From sequence record PQ850594.1: DNA of 64,000 nucleotides. One strand, given 5' to 3'. Both the position numbers and the translations under genes were made by a program. The DNA is from Escherichia phage AnnaHegner_Bas87. Of this stretch, positions 8,571 through 56,646 are shown piece after piece (the first letter of the stretch is position 1; every line of letters starts with the position of its first letter). The notes beneath the pieces are model-generated. The model searched no databases. It saw only the letters and a list, made by a program, of their open reading frames with translations, and was not told the DNA's origin.

Positions 8571-9539
8571 ATGGCTTTATTTGGTAGTGGGAGTAGCAAG
8601 ACTACTTCTAAAATGACAAGACCTGACTACATTCAGTCCTATATTGATCAGTTGGTCAATCAGGTTAATAACACTAGTTCAGGCGATTATGTGTATCGAG
8701 AAAATGTTGGACTTAATCAAAACCAGCAAGAAGCTCTGAACAATCTATCACAATCTGGTGCATTAGGTGCACTTTCTTCTCAGTATATGGATGCTGCTCA
8801 ATCTGGTTTAGGTTATCTAGATAATGCATACTCTGGATATAACAACCTGTCTAACTCTGGTCAAATCACTGGGGAACAGATTGGTGCTCTTGCAGGCCAG
8901 CTCTATGACGACGAGGCTGTGCAAGCAGCTATTGCAGCGAATAATGAACAAACCCAACAGAGTTTGGCTAGGAATGCACTTCCTCAAATCTCTCAGCAGT
9001 TTGCTGGTCAGCAAGGTTCTGGTGCACGTATGGCTAAATCTTTTGCTCAGGGTGATGCTCTGAACCAGATGCAGAACACAGCAACTAATATTACTAACAG
9101 TGCTTATGACTCCGCTCTAACTCAAGCACAGAACATTCTTTCTGGTAATAGACAAACACAAGCATCTGCTTTGGGTGGTTTATCTAACATTGGCTCCAAT
9201 CTTGCTAATCTAGGAAACCAAGCTGGTCAGTTATCACAACAGCAAATGATGAATCAGTGGAATGCAGGACTGCAACAGCAGCAACAACAGCAGTCTGATT
9301 TGAACAATGCTTATGAGAATGCTCAGAATGCCGCTAATTGGGGTTGGCAGGATATTAACAATCAACTAGGTGCTGCCGGGGTTCTTAATGGAGCTTTAGG
9401 GACAACCACAACTACTAAAACATCTGGTGGTAGTGGAGGCTTCCTAGGTGGTGCTGCTAGCGGTGCTGCTGCTGGCTCAGCTTTTGGCCCTTGGGGTGCT
9501 TTAGCTGGCGGTGTTATCGGTGGCTTAGCTAGCTCTTAA
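8571..9539 (+). CDS. N/Q-rich internal virion protein (paralog of 7509-8561)
   Basis: MALFGSGSSKTT N-terminus, QQQQQQ tract, Gly-rich C-terminus. Confidence 0.4.
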   Translation: MALFGSGSSKTTSKMTRPDYIQSYIDQLVNQVNNTSSGDYVYRENVGLNQNQQEALNNLSQSGALGALSSQYMDAAQSGLGYLDNAYSGYNNLSNSGQITGEQIGALAGQLYDDEAVQAAIAANNEQTQQSLARNALPQISQQFAGQQGSGARMAKSFAQGDALNQMQNTATNITNSAYDSALTQAQNILSGNRQTQASALGGLSNIGSNLANLGNQAGQLSQQQMMNQWNAGLQQQQQQQSDLNNAYENAQNAANWGWQDINNQLGAAGVLNGALGTTTTTKTSGGSGGFLGGAASGAAAGSAFGPWGALAGGVIGGLASS

Positions 9540-38445: not shown

Positions 38446-38511
38446 TATATTACCTTTTAGTGTTTCAGTTAAATTCGAACTAGCCTCCTCTTTCGAAGAG
38501 GCTAAAGCAAA

Positions 38512-38697
38512 TCATTCTACTTCGAAGTGTTTGATCACACCAGTCAACACATCAGATTGGAATGTACCCACTAGCTCTGTACCTCGGAAGAAGTTAACAC
38601 TTGTTCCAAGTGATTCAAAGCGATCTGCTTGAATGTCCAGAGATTGAATATTTCCTTCTGCTGACATTGTACGAAACATGATTGTGTATTTATTCAC
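38512..38697 (-). CDS. hypothetical small protein in ligase cluster
   Basis: 61 aa ending in Glu (KHFEVE). Confidence 0.35.
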   Translation of the reverse strand: MNKYTIMFRTMSAEGNIQSLDIQADRFESLGTSVNFFRGTELVGTFQSDVLTGVIKHFEVE

Positions 38698-47841: not shown

Positions 47842-48208
47842 AACTTCTCCTGTTTGTCACATTGATTGGTTAGCCAGTTGTAAGACCCTCTGTTATTCTT
47901 GCTTAACTCGCAAGATGCAAAAGAGTACATCCTGACAAACCCCACAGTGGCTAAGCAAATAAAGATTGCTGCCAATAAGAATTTAGCTTTCAACTTATTA
48001 TCCATACAACCTCTTCTTTGAACTTAAAAAAGGACTCTCATAAGAGAGCCAAGCTTTAAGGCCAATTAAATAGATATCACCCAATATCTGTGGATAACCT
48101 GCTCTTAAAATATTCTATCCGACGGATGTTCGAGGATTATTCCTCTCCCTAGCATCGGCCCCATACGGGAAAGATTAAATTAAGATTAGGTTAGTTGAGC
48201 CAGAATAG

Positions 48209-48243
48209 CTCACATAGCCCTCTGATACTCACGAGGGCTATAG
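48209..48243 (-). repeat. conserved hairpin element, copy A
   Basis: CTCACATAGCCCTC-loop-GAGGGCTATA, 9 bp stem, immediately 3' of gene 48247-48498. Confidence 0.6.
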
Positions 48244-48246
48244 ATG

Positions 48247-48498
48247 TTACTCTGTATCTCCGTCGAAGCGGAGGATTGCTGTCGGAACAGGAATAACTGC
48301 CATGTCAATCTCTAAACGGAAGAGATGACCTGTGCTCAACTGAACTGCTGTTACCGGCTTAGCGATACCAGCAACAGAGGCAGAAGGGATTCGGATAAAG
48401 AATTCCCCCGGATATTCAACCGAACGAAACACATCTCCCGGTGTCATATCTTTTACTTGAACAGTAGGCTCAGGAGGTGTTTTATTGGAAATTTGCAT
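48247..48498 (-). CDS. small protein, PGDVFR family
   Basis: PGDVFR...G.LFRLE...VIPVP shared with 53775-54005. Confidence 0.45.
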   Translation of the reverse strand: MQISNKTPPEPTVQVKDMTPGDVFRSVEYPGEFFIRIPSASVAGIAKPVTAVQLSTGHLFRLEIDMAVIPVPTAILRFDGDTE

Positions 48499-48731
48499 TA
48501 CAAACCTTTCTTAGCACGATCTTTGGCAGTCTTGCCAGTGCGAATACGGTGGGAAACATTAACCAGTTCGCCGCCTTCGACGATGGTTACGCTTTTATTT
48601 TTCGCAATATCGAATACAGTCTTCTCTGTACCGCCCAGACGAATCTGTTTAGGTTCGCTGTGGGTCTGAGTTGATTTAGACTGGAACTGGAACGGCTGAC
48701 GGATGGCATCAATTGCGCTAACTTTAGACAT
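48498..48731 (-). CDS. hypothetical small protein
   Basis: ORF only. Confidence 0.35.
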   Translation of the reverse strand: MSKVSAIDAIRQPFQFQSKSTQTHSEPKQIRLGGTEKTVFDIAKNKSVTIVEGGELVNVSHRIRTGKTAKDRAKKGL

Positions 48732-48758
48732 GCTTTATTACCTTACATTAAAGAGAGA

Positions 48759-49187
48759 TTAAACAACAAATTGGAACGCTTCGTATCCAAACTTGTATGA
48801 GAAGTCATGCTTGAATTTCACTACACGACCACGATCACGGAAAGATTTCAGACGACTAATAAAGCCAGCCATCGGCTCAGGGTCAATAGGGCTACGAATC
48901 TTCATAGCTACAGAGTGCAGCTTGAAGCGTTTACCAGTGCTACAGGCCATCATCACATACTCCATACGAGTAGTCCAGATGTTGAGCACCATGCTTGTTT
49001 TCTCCGCTGACCAACCAGTCTTGCGGGCGATTTCTTTATGGACATTAAGCTCCAAAGGAAGAGGGAATTGCTTGTTGAATGAAGCCGGATATAGCTTGAC
49101 CAGAAGGTCAATGTTTTCTTTATACGTTAAGTAAGCCAATTTCTTGCTTACGTTAGGGAATTTCCCAGACATTTTTTGAAGCTCCAA
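48759..49187 (-). CDS. ProQ/FinO-domain-like RNA-binding protein
   Basis: KKLAYLTYKE...YPASF...PLPLELNVHKEIA...WTTRMEYV...GKRFKL parallels the ProQ N-terminal domain. Confidence 0.45.
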   Translation of the reverse strand: MELQKMSGKFPNVSKKLAYLTYKENIDLLVKLYPASFNKQFPLPLELNVHKEIARKTGWSAEKTSMVLNIWTTRMEYVMMACSTGKRFKLHSVAMKIRSPIDPEPMAGFISRLKSFRDRGRVVKFKHDFSYKFGYEAFQFVV

Positions 49188-49371
49188 AACAGCGCCGAAA
49201 AGAGAGGCGTCATAGTAGCTAAAGGGAGGAGAGAAGAGGGATTATTTACTTACCTTTTTCTGTCCATTGATATACCAGATAACTGAACCGTCAGGCTGTC
49301 GTTGACCGAAGCCTTTCAAGTTAACCATTTCTTCTTCAGAGTAGGCACGTTTTCTCACTGAGTTTCTCCTG

Positions 49372-49629
49372 TCAATAGAAGGTGTGTGTAGAGTCATCGT
49401 TCATACATAACCAAACGAAGAAGACAATCACACAGAAAGCAATAACACCGAGAACTGCAAGGATTATAGTGTTAGCTAATGTGGTATCTAACACGCTTTG
49501 CAGGTACATAAAGAATTGTACGATACCACATAACCCTAGCACGACCCCAACGACAATGAGGAGCCAATATGTGCAGAGAAGGACTGCATCTAATAGTGAT
49601 ACATACTTTGGATGATCTTTATGTCTCAC
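49372..49629 (-). CDS. small multi-pass membrane protein
   Basis: three hydrophobic segments. Confidence 0.4.
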   Translation of the reverse strand: MRHKDHPKYVSLLDAVLLCTYWLLIVVGVVLGLCGIVQFFMYLQSVLDTTLANTIILAVLGVIAFCVIVFFVWLCMNDDSTHTFY

Positions 49630-49885
49630 TGATCTTTTCCACTAAATCCAGAGTTGCTGATTCAAATACAACACCAACTACCATATTAGGTGCCATATTA
49701 CGAACGTATCCGCTCTGCATAGACACGGCCCGAGAGTATTCAGAACCGTTAGAACTTTTGTTTACCTTCATGTAAAGGGTTTGCTCTTTATCTTCTTTCA
49801 GAGTAAAGAAAGAGCCGGGAAGAAGCCTCTGAACAGTCAGAGGGATATCTGCAACATGAGTCTTATTGATAGTAAGAACTGTCAT
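49619..49885 (-). CDS. small protein, PGDVFR-family-like
   Basis: LLPGSFFTLKEDKEQTLYMKV resembles the family N-terminus. Confidence 0.35.
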   Translation of the reverse strand: MTVLTINKTHVADIPLTVQRLLPGSFFTLKEDKEQTLYMKVNKSSNGSEYSRAVSMQSGYVRNMAPNMVVGVVFESATLDLVEKISET

Positions 49886-49888
49886 TGC

Positions 49889-50143
49889 TTATTCCTTAAT
49901 AGTTGCTTCAGCTTTAATAGGAATAACAGCAACATCTTTACGAGGTGCGGTCGCTCGACCTGTGTTAAGGCAGGCTACAAGTCTGTGCTCATCCGCACCT
50001 TTAATACACAGTCGAGTTGAGAACTCGGTAGATAGTAAGATGTACAAATCGTCATCTTCACTGTTAGGATACATGAAGCAATCCCCAAGACGCAGAGCGC
50101 TGAGTGGTATTGCGTTCTTACTGGCTGGTTTATTAACTTTCAT
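49889..50143 (-). CDS. small protein, PGDVFR-family-like
   Basis: LRLGDCFMY...VAVIPIKAEA. Confidence 0.35.
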   Translation of the reverse strand: MKVNKPASKNAIPLSALRLGDCFMYPNSEDDDLYILLSTEFSTRLCIKGADEHRLVACLNTGRATAPRKDVAVIPIKAEATIKE

Positions 50144-50419
50144 TTTACCACCTTTAGTTATGGACCAATTTATGAGAGAACTCTCGGAAGAATGCTTTCA
50201 TAAATAGGGGGAGGGGACGAATCCTCCCATATCCTATTAATTAATGTTGCATGTAAGACCTAACAATCCGATGCTGTAGTGGATAGCGTAAAACGCTTAC
50301 CGGCATTAAACCCAGCCCATGAGGGGCTTATGTGATTAAAATGCTCAACATTGAGCGGTTAGTTGATAGGAGATCTGAAGTCCTATCTCAAAGGACTCTC
50401 GTAAGAATCCTTCACGATA

Positions 50420-50674
50420 TCACTTAGTAAGAAAGATTATCAACTTATCCGCTACCCAGCCTATTAACATAAGGACAGGTAAGAAGAAGATAAAGATCAG
50501 CATAAAAGGCCAGAAGAATATCACCGTCCAAATAGAAAGTATATCAGGCTGACCACTCCATGAGCAGTGGAAGAAGTTGTAGAGTGTATTGGTTTTGAAA
50601 CACCATTTAACTGCGATGGCTGCTAACCACCAACCAATAACATAAATCAGGAGGACATACGCTGCTGTAACCAT
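50420..50674 (-). CDS. small membrane protein
   Basis: two or three hydrophobic helices, Trp-rich. Confidence 0.4.
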   Translation of the reverse strand: MVTAAYVLLIYVIGWWLAAIAVKWCFKTNTLYNFFHCSWSGQPDILSIWTVIFFWPFMLIFIFFLPVLMLIGWVADKLIIFLTK

Positions 50675-50901
50675 TCACCGTTCCATTGATAGTTTCGAGT
50701 GACCACGTTTCCGTGGATAAGGAAGTGCTGTCGGCGAAGGATATCTTTAACGTTGTAATAAGCAGCGTTTCCAAGATGACCTTCTTTGATAAGCCAACGC
50801 AGATTACGAATATCAACCAACAACAGTTTTACTTGCTGTTGGCATGAAGTCTTAGCTGCTGTTTCAAGCAACGCTTTCGTATCAGAATAATGACCAGACA
50901 T
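50647..50901 (-). CDS. hypothetical protein
   Basis: ORF only. Confidence 0.35.
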   Translation of the reverse strand: MSGHYSDTKALLETAAKTSCQQQVKLLLVDIRNLRWLIKEGHLGNAAYYNVKDILRRQHFLIHGNVVTRNYQWNGEWLQQRMSS

Positions 50902-50902
50902 A

Positions 50903-51229
50903 TCACCACTCCTTACCCTTTGTTGTTACAGAGCCACTACACTGTACACCACGGGAGATAAAGTCATAACGCGACCAATCACCTTGTGTCTCCATATCAC
51001 GCCCTGCATAAGCCTTCTCATCAACAGCACCGCCGTTGGAACAAGAAGCACCAGCATAACGCATATCAATTTCACCACTAGGAATCTTCTCCCCGCTGTG
51101 CCAACGGGAAACACAGACACCTTCTACCGATAATGCACACCATCCATCAGGACGATGCTGTACGCAGCCTGTAAGAGCTACACAGGCGATAAAGATACAG
51201 GTTAAGGTAATTACACCACCCCAGCTCAT
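50903..51229 (-). CDS. Cys-rich lipoprotein, superinfection-exclusion candidate
   Basis: signal peptide with lipobox LTGC; mature part has 6 additional Cys. Confidence 0.45.
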   Translation of the reverse strand: MSWGGVITLTCIFIACVALTGCVQHRPDGWCALSVEGVCVSRWHSGEKIPSGEIDMRYAGASCSNGGAVDEKAYAGRDMETQGDWSRYDFISRGVQCSGSVTTKGKEW

Positions 51230-51366
51230 GATCCCTCCTGAAGCGCCTTACGGCGGCTATCTCGCCAAGCCATCCATAGGTAGGTTTTGAGTTCTTCTCT
51301 CTCTTCTTCGCTGAATAAAGGAGAAGTAAAGATATCATCAAACCACTCATTAAACTCAGGGGTCAT
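51226..51366 (-). CDS. hypothetical small acidic protein (sub-60 aa, not in ORF track)
   Basis: AGGAGG RBS then ATG right after the tRNA; 46 aa; stop overlaps the lipoprotein start (ATGA). Confidence 0.35.
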   Translation of the reverse strand: MTPEFNEWFDDIFTSPLFSEEEREELKTYLWMAWRDSRRKALQEGS

Positions 51367-51384
51367 ATACCCTCCTACGTTGAT

Positions 51385-51460
51385 TGGTGCACCCTACAGG
51401 ATTCGAACCTGTAACCAACGACTTAGAAGGTCGCTGCTCTATCCATTGAGCTAAGGGTGC
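51385..51460 (-). tRNA. tRNA-Arg (anticodon UCU), with encoded CCA
   Basis: cloverleaf folded by hand: 7 bp acceptor stem GCACCCT/AGGGTGC, D-arm GCTC/GAGC, anticodon loop CUUCUAA, T-arm ACAGG-TTCGAAT-CCTGT. Confidence 0.85.
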
Positions 51461-51469
51461 TGGATTTGT

Positions 51470-51679
51470 TTAACTAAAAATACGCAAGGCCACATCGTGA
51501 CCAATATGACCGGGAACTTTATGCTGCTCTATTTTCAGACAGCGCTTACAGATACGAGATACACGAGACTCTTTTCTCTCAACTGGAGTGTCTTTAGCAT
51601 GAGTGATTTGAAGGTTTTCAGTGATCACCCACTCATGTTTACATTCAGAATCTTCGGGCTTTTTCTTACGAAAGAACAT
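51470..51679 (-). CDS. small zinc-ribbon protein, HEW/CxxC family
   Basis: start moved to internal Met (MFFRKKK) with AAGAGGTG RBS; CKHEW...CKRC. Confidence 0.4.
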   Translation of the reverse strand: MFFRKKKPEDSECKHEWVITENLQITHAKDTPVERKESRVSRICKRCLKIEQHKVPGHIGHDVALRIFS

Positions 51680-51687
51680 AACACCTC

Positions 51688-51852
51688 TTAGATCAGATCT
51701 GTTTTCTTGTGCAGACCACACACTTTACAGCGAGAGTAGATACGCAACCCTTGTCGCTCTCTGTCAGTAAGTTTATTTGTGATCGTCAGTTCATAAGTAG
51801 AAAGATCTTCCCACTCATGGAAATGAAATAGACGTTTGAACCATTTGATCAT
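51688..51852 (-). CDS. small zinc-ribbon protein, HEW/CxxC family (not in ORF track)
   Basis: MIKWFKRLFHFHEW...CKVCG, 54 aa. Confidence 0.4.
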   Translation of the reverse strand: MIKWFKRLFHFHEWEDLSTYELTITNKLTDRERQGLRIYSRCKVCGLHKKTDLI

Positions 51853-51861
51853 AATGATTCC

Positions 51862-52023
51862 TTAGATTACATCACGATGACTAACATCACCACACACCTT
51901 ACACTGAATAACGTAACGTGTGCCCTTGTCATTGTTCCCATCTGAATCCGTATAGACCAGAGGACGGGTGTTAATAATCTTCCAATCATGACAATGGAAG
52001 ACACGCTTTAGCCACTTAATCAT
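51862..52023 (-). CDS. small zinc-ribbon protein, HEW/CxxC family
   Basis: start moved to internal Met (MIKWLKRVFHCHDW...CKVCG). Confidence 0.4.
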   Translation of the reverse strand: MIKWLKRVFHCHDWKIINTRPLVYTDSDGNNDKGTRYVIQCKVCGDVSHRDVI

Positions 52024-52024
52024 A

Positions 52025-52282
52025 TTAAGCACACGCCGGTAATTCAATTAACTGAGGAGTACGACAAGGGCCATCCTCATACACACCTACCAGTGTTGGC
52101 ATGTAAGGCCCAGCGCACTGGTATTCATCGAACAGTTCATTGTAAGTAGGCTTCCACTTCCAAGCCCACACATAACCCATTCGATCAATGGCAATGTAAC
52201 GAGTGTTCAGAGGAACCTGCATCATCACATCACCAACTGCTATTACTTTCGTAATAACTGCTGCTCGGAAGTTTGTCTTCAT
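52025..52282 (-). CDS. hypothetical protein
   Basis: ORF only. Confidence 0.35.
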   Translation of the reverse strand: MKTNFRAAVITKVIAVGDVMMQVPLNTRYIAIDRMGYVWAWKWKPTYNELFDEYQCAGPYMPTLVGVYEDGPCRTPQLIELPACA

Positions 52283-52587
52283 GACTTTGCAGCCTCCATC
52301 ATTTTATTCATTTTAGCCACACCTTTACAGATAAGAGGCATCAATTCATCAGCCAGTTCAGTGGATAAAAGTTCAAGTCCACCTGACTTAATACCATTCA
52401 CTGCATTCTCAACGTCATCCGACAACAACATCATTGTTAACCATGGGGATTTTATTCCCACAGTAAAGCCCGGTTCGTACCGTGAGTGACTATAGGTGAA
52501 ATCTAAATGGGTCACACCGGGCATTTTAGACATTTGAGCACGGATGACTACCTTAGGATTGCAGCGAGTTGAAGATGAAATTGTCAT
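52279..52587 (-). CDS. hypothetical protein
   Basis: ORF only. Confidence 0.35.
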   Translation of the reverse strand: MTISSSTRCNPKVVIRAQMSKMPGVTHLDFTYSHSRYEPGFTVGIKSPWLTMMLLSDDVENAVNGIKSGGLELLSTELADELMPLICKGVAKMNKMMEAAKS

Positions 52588-52835
52588 GGCTTTTTAATCT
52601 CAATCTGAACGTTGACGACGAATACAGTATGGTTTGCACTGTACACTGAAGTGCCTATGATTGGCTTATCATCACTGAGGATTTCAACAGCGTGCTCAAG
52701 GTTAATCTTCAGATGAAGACGCCCTGATTCCATGAAGAAATCACCAGCACGTATCTCACCGAACTTAGCTGGCACACCGATAGAGGGTATCAGTATGTCA
52801 GTGCGACCTTTACGGTCAAATAAACGATTGAACAT
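52584..52835 (-). CDS. hypothetical protein
   Basis: ORF only. Confidence 0.35.
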   Translation of the reverse strand: MFNRLFDRKGRTDILIPSIGVPAKFGEIRAGDFFMESGRLHLKINLEHAVEILSDDKPIIGTSVYSANHTVFVVNVQIEIKKP

Positions 52836-52844
52836 ATCAACCCC

Positions 52845-53054
52845 TTATGTAATATCAACCTCAAACCAACAGGTAAGAGCTTTTTCATTGTTGCGTTTTG
52901 GCTCAAAGGATTTAACAACCGATAATACTCGGCGCTGTTCCCCATCAAACCAGATAGTTTCATCTTTTTCAGGGAGTAGGTTGTGTGCAGCACAAACGAT
53001 TTCACCTAGCACAACCTGTCTGCCATCTTGCTTACGAACTAAACGAATGTTCAT
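52845..53054 (-). CDS. hypothetical small protein
   Basis: start moved to internal Met (MNIRLVRKQ) with AGAGAGG RBS. Confidence 0.35.
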   Translation of the reverse strand: MNIRLVRKQDGRQVVLGEIVCAAHNLLPEKDETIWFDGEQRRVLSVVKSFEPKRNNEKALTCWFEVDIT

Positions 53055-53099
53055 AACAACCTCTCTTGTTAGTTTAAGTAAGAGTTGTCCCTTAATTAA

Positions 53100-53130
53100 A
53101 ACAACAAAGGCCACCCCTAAGGGCAGCCTC
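53100..53130 (-). terminator. rho-independent terminator (minus strand)
   Basis: GGCTGCCC-TTAG-GGGTGGCC hairpin (two G-U wobbles on minus strand) then TTTGTTGT. Confidence 0.5.
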
Positions 53131-53134
53131 TTAT

Positions 53135-53338
53135 TTAAGCGCAAGCACTACGCAGTTTGTTATTCAAGAAGCGATCTTCTGCATTATACAGGAATGCATA
53201 GAACAACTCTTTTGCTACATCCCGATCGCAATTGAGACATTTAGAGATCTGTAACAACAAACCATCACGACTATTAGGATGGTCAATTATCGCAAGACGA
53301 ATAATCTCACGAATACCAATGTCATGCTCAGCCGCCAT
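53135..53338 (-). CDS. hypothetical small protein
   Basis: start moved to internal Met (MAAEHD) overlapping an upstream 46-codon ORF. Confidence 0.35.
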   Translation of the reverse strand: MAAEHDIGIREIIRLAIIDHPNSRDGLLLQISKCLNCDRDVAKELFYAFLYNAEDRFLNNKLRSACA

Positions 53339-53728
53339 AGAACCAATCACCCTGACGTTTACGGATGTTAGTTGTCAGACGAAGCATGGCAGACTCAATC
53401 TTCAGAGCACCATTTGCCACTGCTTCCATACGCTCAGGACGGTTCATACGCTTGGTTGACTTCTTCATAACGTTCTCTCTTTGTTAGTGGAGGCAGTATT
53501 GCCAGTTAATATAAAGGGAAGCCCTACACGTTAAGGCTTCCGCTTGTACAAACTGTCGAGAACTTTCTACCCCTAGATTGTTCTCTATCCCAAACCGATA
53601 CATACCCCTACATATCGGAAAGCTGTTCGAAAATTAACAGGTTTTAGTCTATCACCGGATGTTTGAGACAAGTCTCGCCCTAGCGGTGAGCCATATGGCG
53701 TTGAGATTATAGTTAATTGAGGAACATC

Positions 53729-53763
53729 CTCACATAGCCCTCTGATAAACACAAGGGCTATAA
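53729..53763 (-). repeat. conserved hairpin element, copy B
   Basis: CTCACATAGCCCTC-loop-AAGGGCTATA immediately 3' of gene 53775-54005. Confidence 0.6.
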
Positions 53764-53774
53764 GTCGATGTTAC

Positions 53775-54005
53775 TTAACCATTGATATGAGTTACTTGAA
53801 CATCAGGTACAGGGATGACTTCATGGTCTTCCTGTAATTGGAACAGTGTCCCCTGACTAAGACCAACCACACGACGCATATCGTTAAGGCTAGTGTCTGT
53901 CTTTAGGTAGACATTTTCAGAGTTAGTTGGTAAACGGAACACATCTCCCGGACGTAACTCACTGAGCTTTTTAGTAACAACTACAGAGAAGAGATTAATT
54001 TTCAT
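53775..54005 (-). CDS. small protein, PGDVFR family
   Basis: LRPGDVFRL...GTLFQLQEDHEVIPVP. Confidence 0.45.
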   Translation of the reverse strand: MKINLFSVVVTKKLSELRPGDVFRLPTNSENVYLKTDTSLNDMRRVVGLSQGTLFQLQEDHEVIPVPDVQVTHING

Positions 54006-55107: not shown

Positions 55108-55134
55108 TAAAAAAGCCCCATCCGAAGACGGGGC
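55108..55134 (-). terminator. rho-independent terminator (minus strand)
   Basis: GCCCCG-loop-TGGGGC hairpin followed on minus strand by TTTTTTAT. Confidence 0.5.
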
Positions 55135-55373
55135 GACCTGAAAGAGTGAACATGACCTCACTCATTTAAGAATCCTCGTAAAGACTCTTAAAAAAGAGGC
55201 CTCGTTAAAGGCCCGGTCAAATGACCATCCAATAGGGATTGAACCATGCCAATGATTCACAAAGGGAGTTCCCTTTAGGCATCACTAGCTACGCAAAAAG
55301 CCGCACAAAGGCGGCAGACAAAAAGACGCTCAAGAAGAGCGTCATAGTAGTTGACCACTGGTACAGAAGGGGC

Positions 55374-56593: not shown

Positions 56594-56627
56594 AAAAGAA
56601 AAAGGCGCTACCCTTTCGAATAGCGCC
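56594..56627 (-). terminator. rho-independent terminator (minus strand)
   Basis: GGCGCTA-10 nt loop-TAGCGCC hairpin followed on minus strand by a T/C-rich run. Confidence 0.55.
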
Positions 56628-56646
56628 CCATGTGTTTTATTGTTGG

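Follow-up and report, generated by a model that had tools for sequence, protein, structure and literature searches.

We showed that a hairpin repeated in the early region of Escherichia phage AnnaHegner_Bas87 (sequence record PQ850594.1; the window is the whole analysed stretch of 64,000 nucleotides (nt)) is the 5' helix of a 230-300 nt structured non-coding RNA module, which is duplicated, deeply conserved and unannotated. On the plus strand the repeat reads CTCACATAGCCCTC-N10-(G/A)AGGGCTATA at 48209-48242 (copy A) and 53729-53762 (copy B), and the minus-strand reading of this 34-nt element is UAUAGCCCU(C/U)-GUG(AG/UU)UAUCA-GAGGGCUAUG-UGAG. Judged by its anatomy, the hairpin may be a signal for cutting the messenger RNA and stabilising its 3' end, like the RNase III sites of T7, an assignment which we favour tentatively and rate at somewhat less than an even chance.

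A pattern search of the 64 kilobases (kb) allowing up to 3 mismatches returned exactly two sites, with 0.00 expected from 100 shuffles, and the original prediction of an element present twice was thus upheld. The two copies mismatch at 3 of 34 positions (31/34 identical), while the proteins encoded upstream are only 33% identical. One of the differences changes the innermost C-G pair to U.G on the minus strand, where the plus strand would have an A.C mismatch. The loop, given earlier as 10-12 nt, was 10 nt in both copies. Directly 3' of the hairpin stand UGAGCUAUUC (copy A) and UGAGGAUGUU (copy B), with no T-run on either strand. Since no U-tract follows the stem, the hairpin is not an intrinsic terminator, as had been stated before, and a terminator scan of the window lists neither site, the true terminators being listed 160-190 nt further downstream. 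The repeat had been described as confined to about 35 base pairs (bp), but on the minus strand the two copies stay similar for about another 110 nt downstream. The two hairpins were missing from the output of an inverted-repeat scan (25-64 kb), which was not used.

Folding of both sites gave stable hairpins, together with a lower stem and an internal loop that had been overlooked. What is repeated as a hairpin forms only the upper part of a stem-loop with two tiers. From its base upwards this has a lower stem of 6-7 bp, in which the upstream stop codon lies, then an internal loop (3x3 or 4x4), an upper stem of 10 bp and a loop of 4-10 nt. For comparative analysis, 22 A-type and 18 B-type sequences, all distinct, were assembled from relatives in IMG/VR, metagenomes, GenBank phages and genome bins, and the module structure was derived using RNAalifold and pair counting. 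Across 20 distinct A-type and B-type sequences the lower stems of A and B occupy the same alignment columns with unrelated sequences, and 97.8% of the cells were paired, compared with 36-56% when the partners were slid by 1-3 columns. Double changes were found in 5/6 lower-stem pairs and 2/10 upper-stem pairs; in the upper stem, U.G is replaced by U-A in LAMP and L022, and UC/GA by AC/GU in 7-11 and SE131. Among the relatives the apical loop is 10 nt, UUCG, UUCU, CUCC or 6-7 nt. A pseudoknot joining the hairpin loop to the GAUAG motif that follows P2 (the second helix of the module, described below) was rejected by inspection, as its pairing is lost in the UUCG-loop variants.

G.U pairs make up about 11% of the paired cells, so that pairing reaches 99% on the minus-strand RNA and 88% on its complement, and the loops include the tetraloops UUCG and CUUG. 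These G.U pairs and tetraloops, along with the variable arm spacing, argue for a stem-loop acting as sense-strand RNA and not as a DNA operator or cruciform, which bears out the earlier proposal that the element works on the transcribed strand. Loop lengths of 4-10 nt and compensatory stem changes also make a fixed-spacing DNA-binding site unlikely.

Downstream of the hairpin, the parts shared by A and B are, in order, the extended hairpin, an AU-rich spacer, P1, P2, a 7x7 internal loop and P3. P1 is a 3-bp stem (CCC/GGG, GCC/GGC or GGC/GCC) with a GUAU or AUAU loop, P2 has 5-6 bp (CCGAUG/CGUCGG, UCGGUG/CGCCGA or CACCG/CGGUG), the symmetric internal loop reads CUAGGG[A/C] / [G/A]AACAUC, and P3 is a hairpin with a variable loop; compensatory changes were found in 7/14 core pairs. 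The A-type module contains 48 pairs, 99.1% paired, 10 of them with double changes (0-2 with slid partners), and 0/500 shuffles reached its score; the B-type module contains 79 pairs, 99.0% paired, 13 with double changes (1-2 with slid partners); these counts are of sequences and not of independent events, and the A-type double changes mostly separate the 7-11 clade from Kuravirus. Independent lineages were added by the A-versus-B comparison and by a Citrovirus-like contig (L050). P1 and P2-P3 of copy A are enclosed by a closing helix, AACCUAAUCUUAA paired to UUAAGAGCAGGUU, in which 3 pairs covary. The conserved 'promoter-like' ACTAACCTAATCTT is accounted for by its being part of this helix, and since the helix covaries, transcription must begin upstream of the spacer. 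In the minimum-energy fold of copy A the domain and the terminator behind it are independent. The 3' arm and U-tract of that terminator are invariant, also in 7-11; it is annotated as a terminator in SU7, 4E8 and 7-11, and the start codon of the following gene lies at 48005.

The bracketed positions of the 7x7 loop, which flank P3 (48124-48152 and 53657-53683, minus strand), were A..G or C..A in 25/27 distinct cores and A..A in the remaining 2/27; C..G never occurred, both states were found within each clade, and the rest of the loop is invariant even in the Citrovirus-like contig. The A..G/C..A covariation would fit the pattern of a trans Hoogsteen/sugar-edge (sheared) pair. The loop most likely binds a conserved factor. 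Resemblances of the module to tetraloop-receptor and loop-E motifs are, as we judge them, inconsistent between the copies. A hidden small gene was rejected: the AUG in the P1 loop opens frames of 15-28 codons in copy A and of 4 in copy B with no ribosome-binding site, and the positions that vary belong to loops and compensating pairs and are not codon wobble positions. A 55-codon GTG open reading frame (ORF) at 53585-53752 was also discarded, being not conserved.

Megablast of 46-56 kb placed the region among phiEco32-like coliphages (Gordonclarkvirinae), with vB_EcoP-101114UKE3 (96%), SU7, IME267, ECBP2 and phiEco32. Blocks A and B were present in 103 and 98 GenBank phage records, respectively, those with block A including Salmonella phage 7-11, SE131, SeKF_80 and pSal-SNUABM-01 of another family (Grimontviridae). 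The original prediction had named absence from relatives as evidence to the contrary; the element is present there. In comparison with phiEco32, SU10 and LAMP, no part of the early region is better conserved at the nucleotide level than block A (85-87%, equal to the tRNA); in comparison with 7-11, only two stretches in 14 kb can be aligned, and block A is one of them. Covariance models of the core (R1) and the hairpin (R2) each found exactly two copies in the window and in the Kuravirus loci and one copy in the examined 16-18 kb of 7-11 and SE131, and in all of these hairpin and core co-occur. No extra copies were given by R1 or R2 in the window beyond one weak unrelated hairpin (38465-38517).

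A distant homologue was found in L050, with a core of 60 bits, a P2 of AUAGCG/CGCUAU and an identical internal loop. There a stop codon is followed in turn by a hairpin (irregular, about 24 bp, unrelated in sequence), the core, a GGGG-loop hairpin and the next gene. Since the hairpin stands at the same place with a wholly different sequence, its shape and not its sequence is preserved. L050 was binned as a Flavobacterium metagenome-assembled genome and is nearest to the Citrovirus phages Pecta and CVT22; this binning is probably wrong, because the closest named relatives infect Erwinia, Citrobacter and Klebsiella. In Erwinia phage Pecta, the closest named relative of L050, the module is absent. 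Several small early proteins of L050 (1978-4396, plus strand) all end in (D/E)EENE. Pattern matches in other metagenome and genome contigs (L018, L023-L025, L035, L041, L046, L049 and L051-L053) were rejected as chance (at most 22 bits).

No homologue or mimic of the module was found in 5,426 E. coli genomes. Rfam 15 at gathering score reported the tRNA-Arg only in the window, and permissive Rfam scans of both sites gave chance-level matches only, a STnc100 match covering the terminator alone. In the phage records examined the module regions are unannotated, the terminator excepted, and no published description or test of the hairpin or module was found in the literature.

The minus strand carries every gene from about 16 to 62 kb of the window, and the two hairpin sites lie in the early region, flanking the tRNA-Arg on its two sides. 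The gp36 promoters are reported solely upstream of phiEco32 genes 6, 13, 26, 40, 58 and 68, in SU10 the only early promoters on record, of the sigma70 type, group together at the right end, which puts them 5 and 11 kb upstream of the elements, and for 7-11 the literature predicts no promoter near its module copy. Consensus scanning of the window gave no sigma70-like promoter at either site (no acceptable -35), and no match to the gp36-type promoter (tAATGTAtA) with at most 1 mismatch was found within 800 bp of either site. Given these reported promoters, the modules sit between cistrons, inside long sigma70-driven early transcripts.

Each element starts 4-12 nt past the stop codon of its upstream gene. 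The two upstream products, of the PGDVFR family, are paralogues (33% identity, E 2e-8) of unknown function in PHROGs and without a Pfam match. The element had been placed 3' of a PGDVFR-family gene each time, which holds in the window, but in relatives the upstream gene is often unrelated. The 7-11 module and copy B of phiEco32 probably also stand behind PGDVFR-like genes; the SU10 module follows a membrane-protein gene, and phiEco32 copy A and the modules of LAMP and 4E8 follow unrelated small proteins. The onset of similarity is always at the stop codon, in (U)AAGUAAC. Given these differing upstream genes and this exact start of similarity, the unit does not include the upstream gene, and the 5' edge of the module is a mosaic junction. 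The idea of a duplicated gene-plus-hairpin cassette was therefore abandoned, as the duplicated unit is the 230-300 nt structured non-coding RNA module, which follows unrelated genes elsewhere.

RNase III-type processing was ranked first because the hairpin dimensions and conservation pattern match those of the T7 early sites (R0.3, R0.5, R1, R1.1 and R1.3). Both are intercistronic on the sense strand, belong to an early operon transcribed by host polymerase, lack a U-tract and occur in several copies. Folding with the same tool gave the T7 sites a lower stem of 5-8 bp, an internal loop with 3-5 nt on each side and an upper stem of 9-10 bp capped by a small loop, with the upper-stem base and the 3' strand of the internal loop conserved and the distal stem and loop variable. 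The irregular helix of the phage element amounts to about two turns, as in T7-type sites, and its L050 homologue to about 24 bp. Unlike the T7 sites, to which it shows no sequence homology (model R2 matches nothing in the T7 early region), the phage hairpin occurs in two copies only, is fused to a large structured RNA domain and holds a stop codon in its lower stem. An RNase III-type site, as proposed at the outset, thus appears the best-fitting known kind by likeness to T7.

From this anatomical likeness we infer the cleavage, the enzyme and the consequences. The two-tier stem-loop would form in the early polycistronic minus-strand transcript, and its irregular helix, equivalent to about 20 bp, would serve as the signal for a double-strand-specific endonuclease of the T7 RNase III type, which would cut in or beside the internal loop. 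After the cut the upstream message would end in the stable upper hairpin and be shielded from 3' exonucleases, and the folded RNA downstream would be freed, copy A as a separate RNA of about 180 nt that stops at the terminator 48026-48050, and copy B as a structured 5' leader of the next gene. In being released by an endonuclease and ending in a U-tailed terminator, the copy A product would resemble small RNAs from 3' untranslated or intercistronic regions such as CpxQ and SroC; unlike the module, whose core is a structured internal loop, these are usually released by RNase E and use Hfq and a short single-stranded seed.

Several points weigh against processing. The lower stem is short (6-7 bp), with an A.C mismatch in copy A of the window, and the usual preference of E. 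coli RNase III is for about two complete turns of helix. UAUAGCC/GGCUAU does not vary among some 40 distinct sequences of the A and B types, 7-11 included, and GGCUAUGUGAG is nearly constant in Kuravirus, the 7-11-type copies having GGCUAUUGGAG; such conservation could mean a sequence-specific protein. As the hairpin is always found with the domain, it may be an integral arm of one RNA and not a cut site. Moreover, a strong mid-operon terminator behind a conserved RNA is, by analogy, the classical layout of antitermination or attenuation.

This last point leads to the best of the other explanations, which we consider unlikely, though well worth weighing: hairpin and domain would form one cis-acting regulatory RNA controlling read-through of the terminator, either recruiting a factor as lambda nutR does, modifying RNA polymerase directly like HK022 putR, or serving as a leader/attenuator, with the hairpin as a structural or binding arm. 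Copy A lies directly upstream of the strong invariant terminator 48026-48050, past which come about 15 kb of early genes with no nearby gp36-type promoter and, in the window scan, no sigma70-like site down to 46000, the SU10 early promoters being reported only at the far right end. The order of small early gene, RNA element, terminator and more genes is found here. It is also the cro-nutR/putR-tR1 topology. Two paralogous copies in one early operon recall nutL/nutR and putL/putR, where compensatory changes likewise keep the structure between copies; an invariant 7x7 loop between covarying helices is what would be expected of the binding site of a conserved machine, and hairpin and domain always occur together. 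Against this, at least five terminator-like hairpins stand upstream of copy B (56629, 55343, 55315, 55214 and 55134) with no module before them. Inspection showed no more than 4-5 nt that could pair alternatively with the terminator arms, without conservation of this pairing, and domain and terminator fold independently, the terminator-like hairpin of copy B having a poor U-tract. Neither module shows the boxA and short boxB with GNRA-like pentaloop of lambda nut: no boxA-like sequence (CGCUCUUA-like) was seen in either, and the hairpin, with its 10 bp stem and variable 4-10 nt loop, is far larger than boxB. The part shared by A and B is at least 135 nt, whereas HK022 put, a cis-acting RNA of two stem-loops by which RNA polymerase becomes resistant to terminators, is about 70 nt. 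The module is likened to put by topology only, and it lies 5-11 kb from known promoters, not close to one. To our knowledge there is no N-like protein for the phiEco32-like module.

A sequence-specific site for a phage or host RNA-binding protein (e.g. a translational repressor or stabiliser) that acts with no cut is rather improbable. The invariant UAUAGCC and GGCUAU speak for it, as do the 3' strand of the internal loop, UGAG, which is invariant within Kuravirus, and the limitation of variation to the distal stem and loop; however, the T7 RNase III sites have equal partial sequence conservation, the apical loop, the usual recognition element, is unconserved in length and sequence, and the Citrovirus-like homologue has an unrelated hairpin sequence at the same position.

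A role at the DNA level, as an early promoter or operator, a replication origin or a recombination linker (T4 PeSL-like gene shuffling), is very improbable. In its favour are a -10-like box after the hairpin (TATAAT at 53706-53711 in copy B), a perfect DnaA box (48089-48097), and a variable upstream gene with similarity from the stop codon on, i.e. a mosaic junction; against it, there is no acceptable -35 and no promoter at either site in the consensus scan, the -10-like bases of copy A lie in the covarying closing helix, so that the transcript starts upstream, the G.U pairs, UUCG/CUUG loops and strand asymmetry favour RNA, DnaA boxes are not enriched in the window (23 found, 17.5 expected), GC skew shifts only where gene orientation does, and use as a recombination junction may simply result from conservation instead of being a function. 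A replication origin was accordingly rejected, with one perfect DnaA box, no enrichment and no skew signal. T4 PeSL cassettes are similar in being repeated stem-loops between small unknown early genes at mosaic junctions; they differ in being a short promoter plus stem-loop acting as DNA, whereas the module is a 230-300 nt RNA with no promoter detected and two copies only.

phiEco32 is a model for phage takeover of host transcription (gp36 sigma factor and gp79), and its early region has so far been treated as small unknown genes under few promoters, within which two deeply conserved, covariation-backed RNA structures are now placed. If the hairpins are processing sites, they would set the real mRNA units and how stable the early messages are; should the modules govern the terminator that follows them, early-gene timing would gain an RNA-based layer. 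It is also conceivable, though on balance doubtful, that the modules of Gordonclarkvirinae, Moazamivirus and at least one Citrovirus-like phage form an undescribed RNA family whose 7x7 loop docks onto a conserved host machine (RNA polymerase, with put-like read-through, or another takeover target); the early operon would then be under an RNA control that is absent from the sigma70/gp79/gp36 model of phiEco32. Either way, the modules are a new RNA family for Rfam-type curation, in regions unannotated in about 100 therapeutic-candidate coliphages. The positions of all features are listed in Table 1.

Table 1. Features of the two module copies and of neighbouring genes, in window coordinates (aa, amino acids)
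Feature	Position	Strand	Sequence, evidence or remark
Extended hairpin A	48203-48252	-	Fold -28.2 kcal/mol, z -4.6; covariation; model R2 65.4 bits
Hairpin A, lower stem	48246-48252 with 48203-48209	-	GAGUAAC with GCUAUUC; 3x3 internal loop AUC/UGA
Hairpin A, upper stem	48233-48242 with 48213-48222	-	UAUAGCCCUC with GAGGGCUAUG; loop GUGAGUAUCA 48223-48232
Three-way-junction domain A	48095-48193	-	Covariation; model R1 76.5 bits at 48115-48173
Domain A, closing helix	48180-48193 with 48095-48108	-	UAACCUA..UCUUAA with UUAAGA..AGGUUA
Domain A, P1	48160-48169	-	CCC-GUAU-GGG
Domain A, P2	48153-48158 with 48119-48124	-	CCGAUG/CGUCGG
Domain A, 7x7 loop	48146-48152 with 48125-48131	-	CUAGGGA/GAACAUC; P3 hairpin 48132-48145
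P4 hairpin, G-rich loop	48072-48089	-	AGAUAU-UGGGUG-AUAUCU; in Kuravirus-type copies, absent in 7-11
Strong intrinsic terminator, end of copy A	48026-48050	-	GGCUCUC-UUAU-GAGAGUC + U6
Extended hairpin B	53723-53772	-	Fold -24.4 kcal/mol, z -4.3; covariation; model R2 71.7 bits
Hairpin B, lower stem	53767-53772 with 53723-53728	-	AACAUC with GAUGUU; 4x4 internal loop GACU/UGAG
Hairpin B, upper stem	53753-53762 with 53733-53742	-	UAUAGCCCUU with GAGGGCUAUG; loop GUGUUUAUCA 53743-53752
Core domain B	53648-53703	-	Model R1 64.3 bits; covariation
Core B, parts		-	P1 GCC-AUAU-GGC; P2 (U)CACCG/CGGUG(A); loop CUAGGGC/AAACAUC; P3 GAGA-CUUG-UCUC
Two copy-B-specific hairpins	53595-53618, 53558-53585	-	UA-GGGG-UA apical loops; several stem pairs covary
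Terminator-like hairpin, copy B	53508-53541	-	GGAAGCC..GGCUUCC, poor U-tract; covarying
Small hairpin after copy B terminator-like hairpin	53492-53503	-	GGCA-AUAC-UGCC
Copy B ribosome-binding site	53474-53482	-	AAAGAGAGA; then 46-aa gene, phi32_112 homologue, start codon 53468 (region 53328-53482)
Copy A upstream gene, 83-aa PGDVFR-family protein	48247-48498	-	Stop codon UAA of AGUAAC in lower stem
Copy B upstream gene, 76-aa PGDVFR-family paralogue	53775-54005	-	
tRNA-Arg (anticodon TCT)	51385-51460	-	Between the two modules; same place in all relatives

Some further observations were made on the modules. In the RNAalifold prediction UCCUC (53719-53723), which directly follows hairpin B, pairs with GAGAG in the ribosome-binding site, 240 nt further on, and both sides are invariant. 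Such a pairing would close off the B module as a whole, and translation of the 46-aa gene could be tied by it to folding or processing. Phages of the phiEco32 type carry an insertion of about 60 nt in the loop of the copy B terminator-like hairpin, with the stem kept (L006, about 8690-8790; columns 254-312 of the B-type alignment A3). G-rich apical loops recur past the core, namely UA-GGGG-UA twice in B, UGGGUG in A and UUCAGGGGUGUG in L050 (3205-3240). The perfect DnaA box of copy A (TTATCCACA, minus strand) lies in the single-stranded stretch from the closing helix to P4 and is invariant in all relatives, 7-11 among them; a one-mismatch DnaA box (47998-48006, plus strand) lies 90 bp away across the terminator.

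Elsewhere in the window, four terminator-like hairpins were found within 230 bp at 55115-55343 (minus strand) and another strong one at 56602-56629, just behind the first early gene. Further terminators lie at 53106-53131, 50209-50228 and 48026-48050, so that the early operon, for which few promoters are known, is unusually rich in terminators. A 276-nt non-coding gap at 50144-50419 (minus strand) with two small hairpins is 76-78% conserved and the stretch 49193-49346 is 83-86% conserved compared with phiEco32, SU10 and LAMP, the latter being overlapped by a 51-codon minus-strand ORF (49242-49397). The hairpin at 38465-38517 (minus strand; UAGCCUCUUC-GAAA-GAGGAGGCUA) is a third intercistronic hairpin without a U-tract, lying between two middle-region genes with a weak R2 match (18.8 bits) and no core domain behind it.

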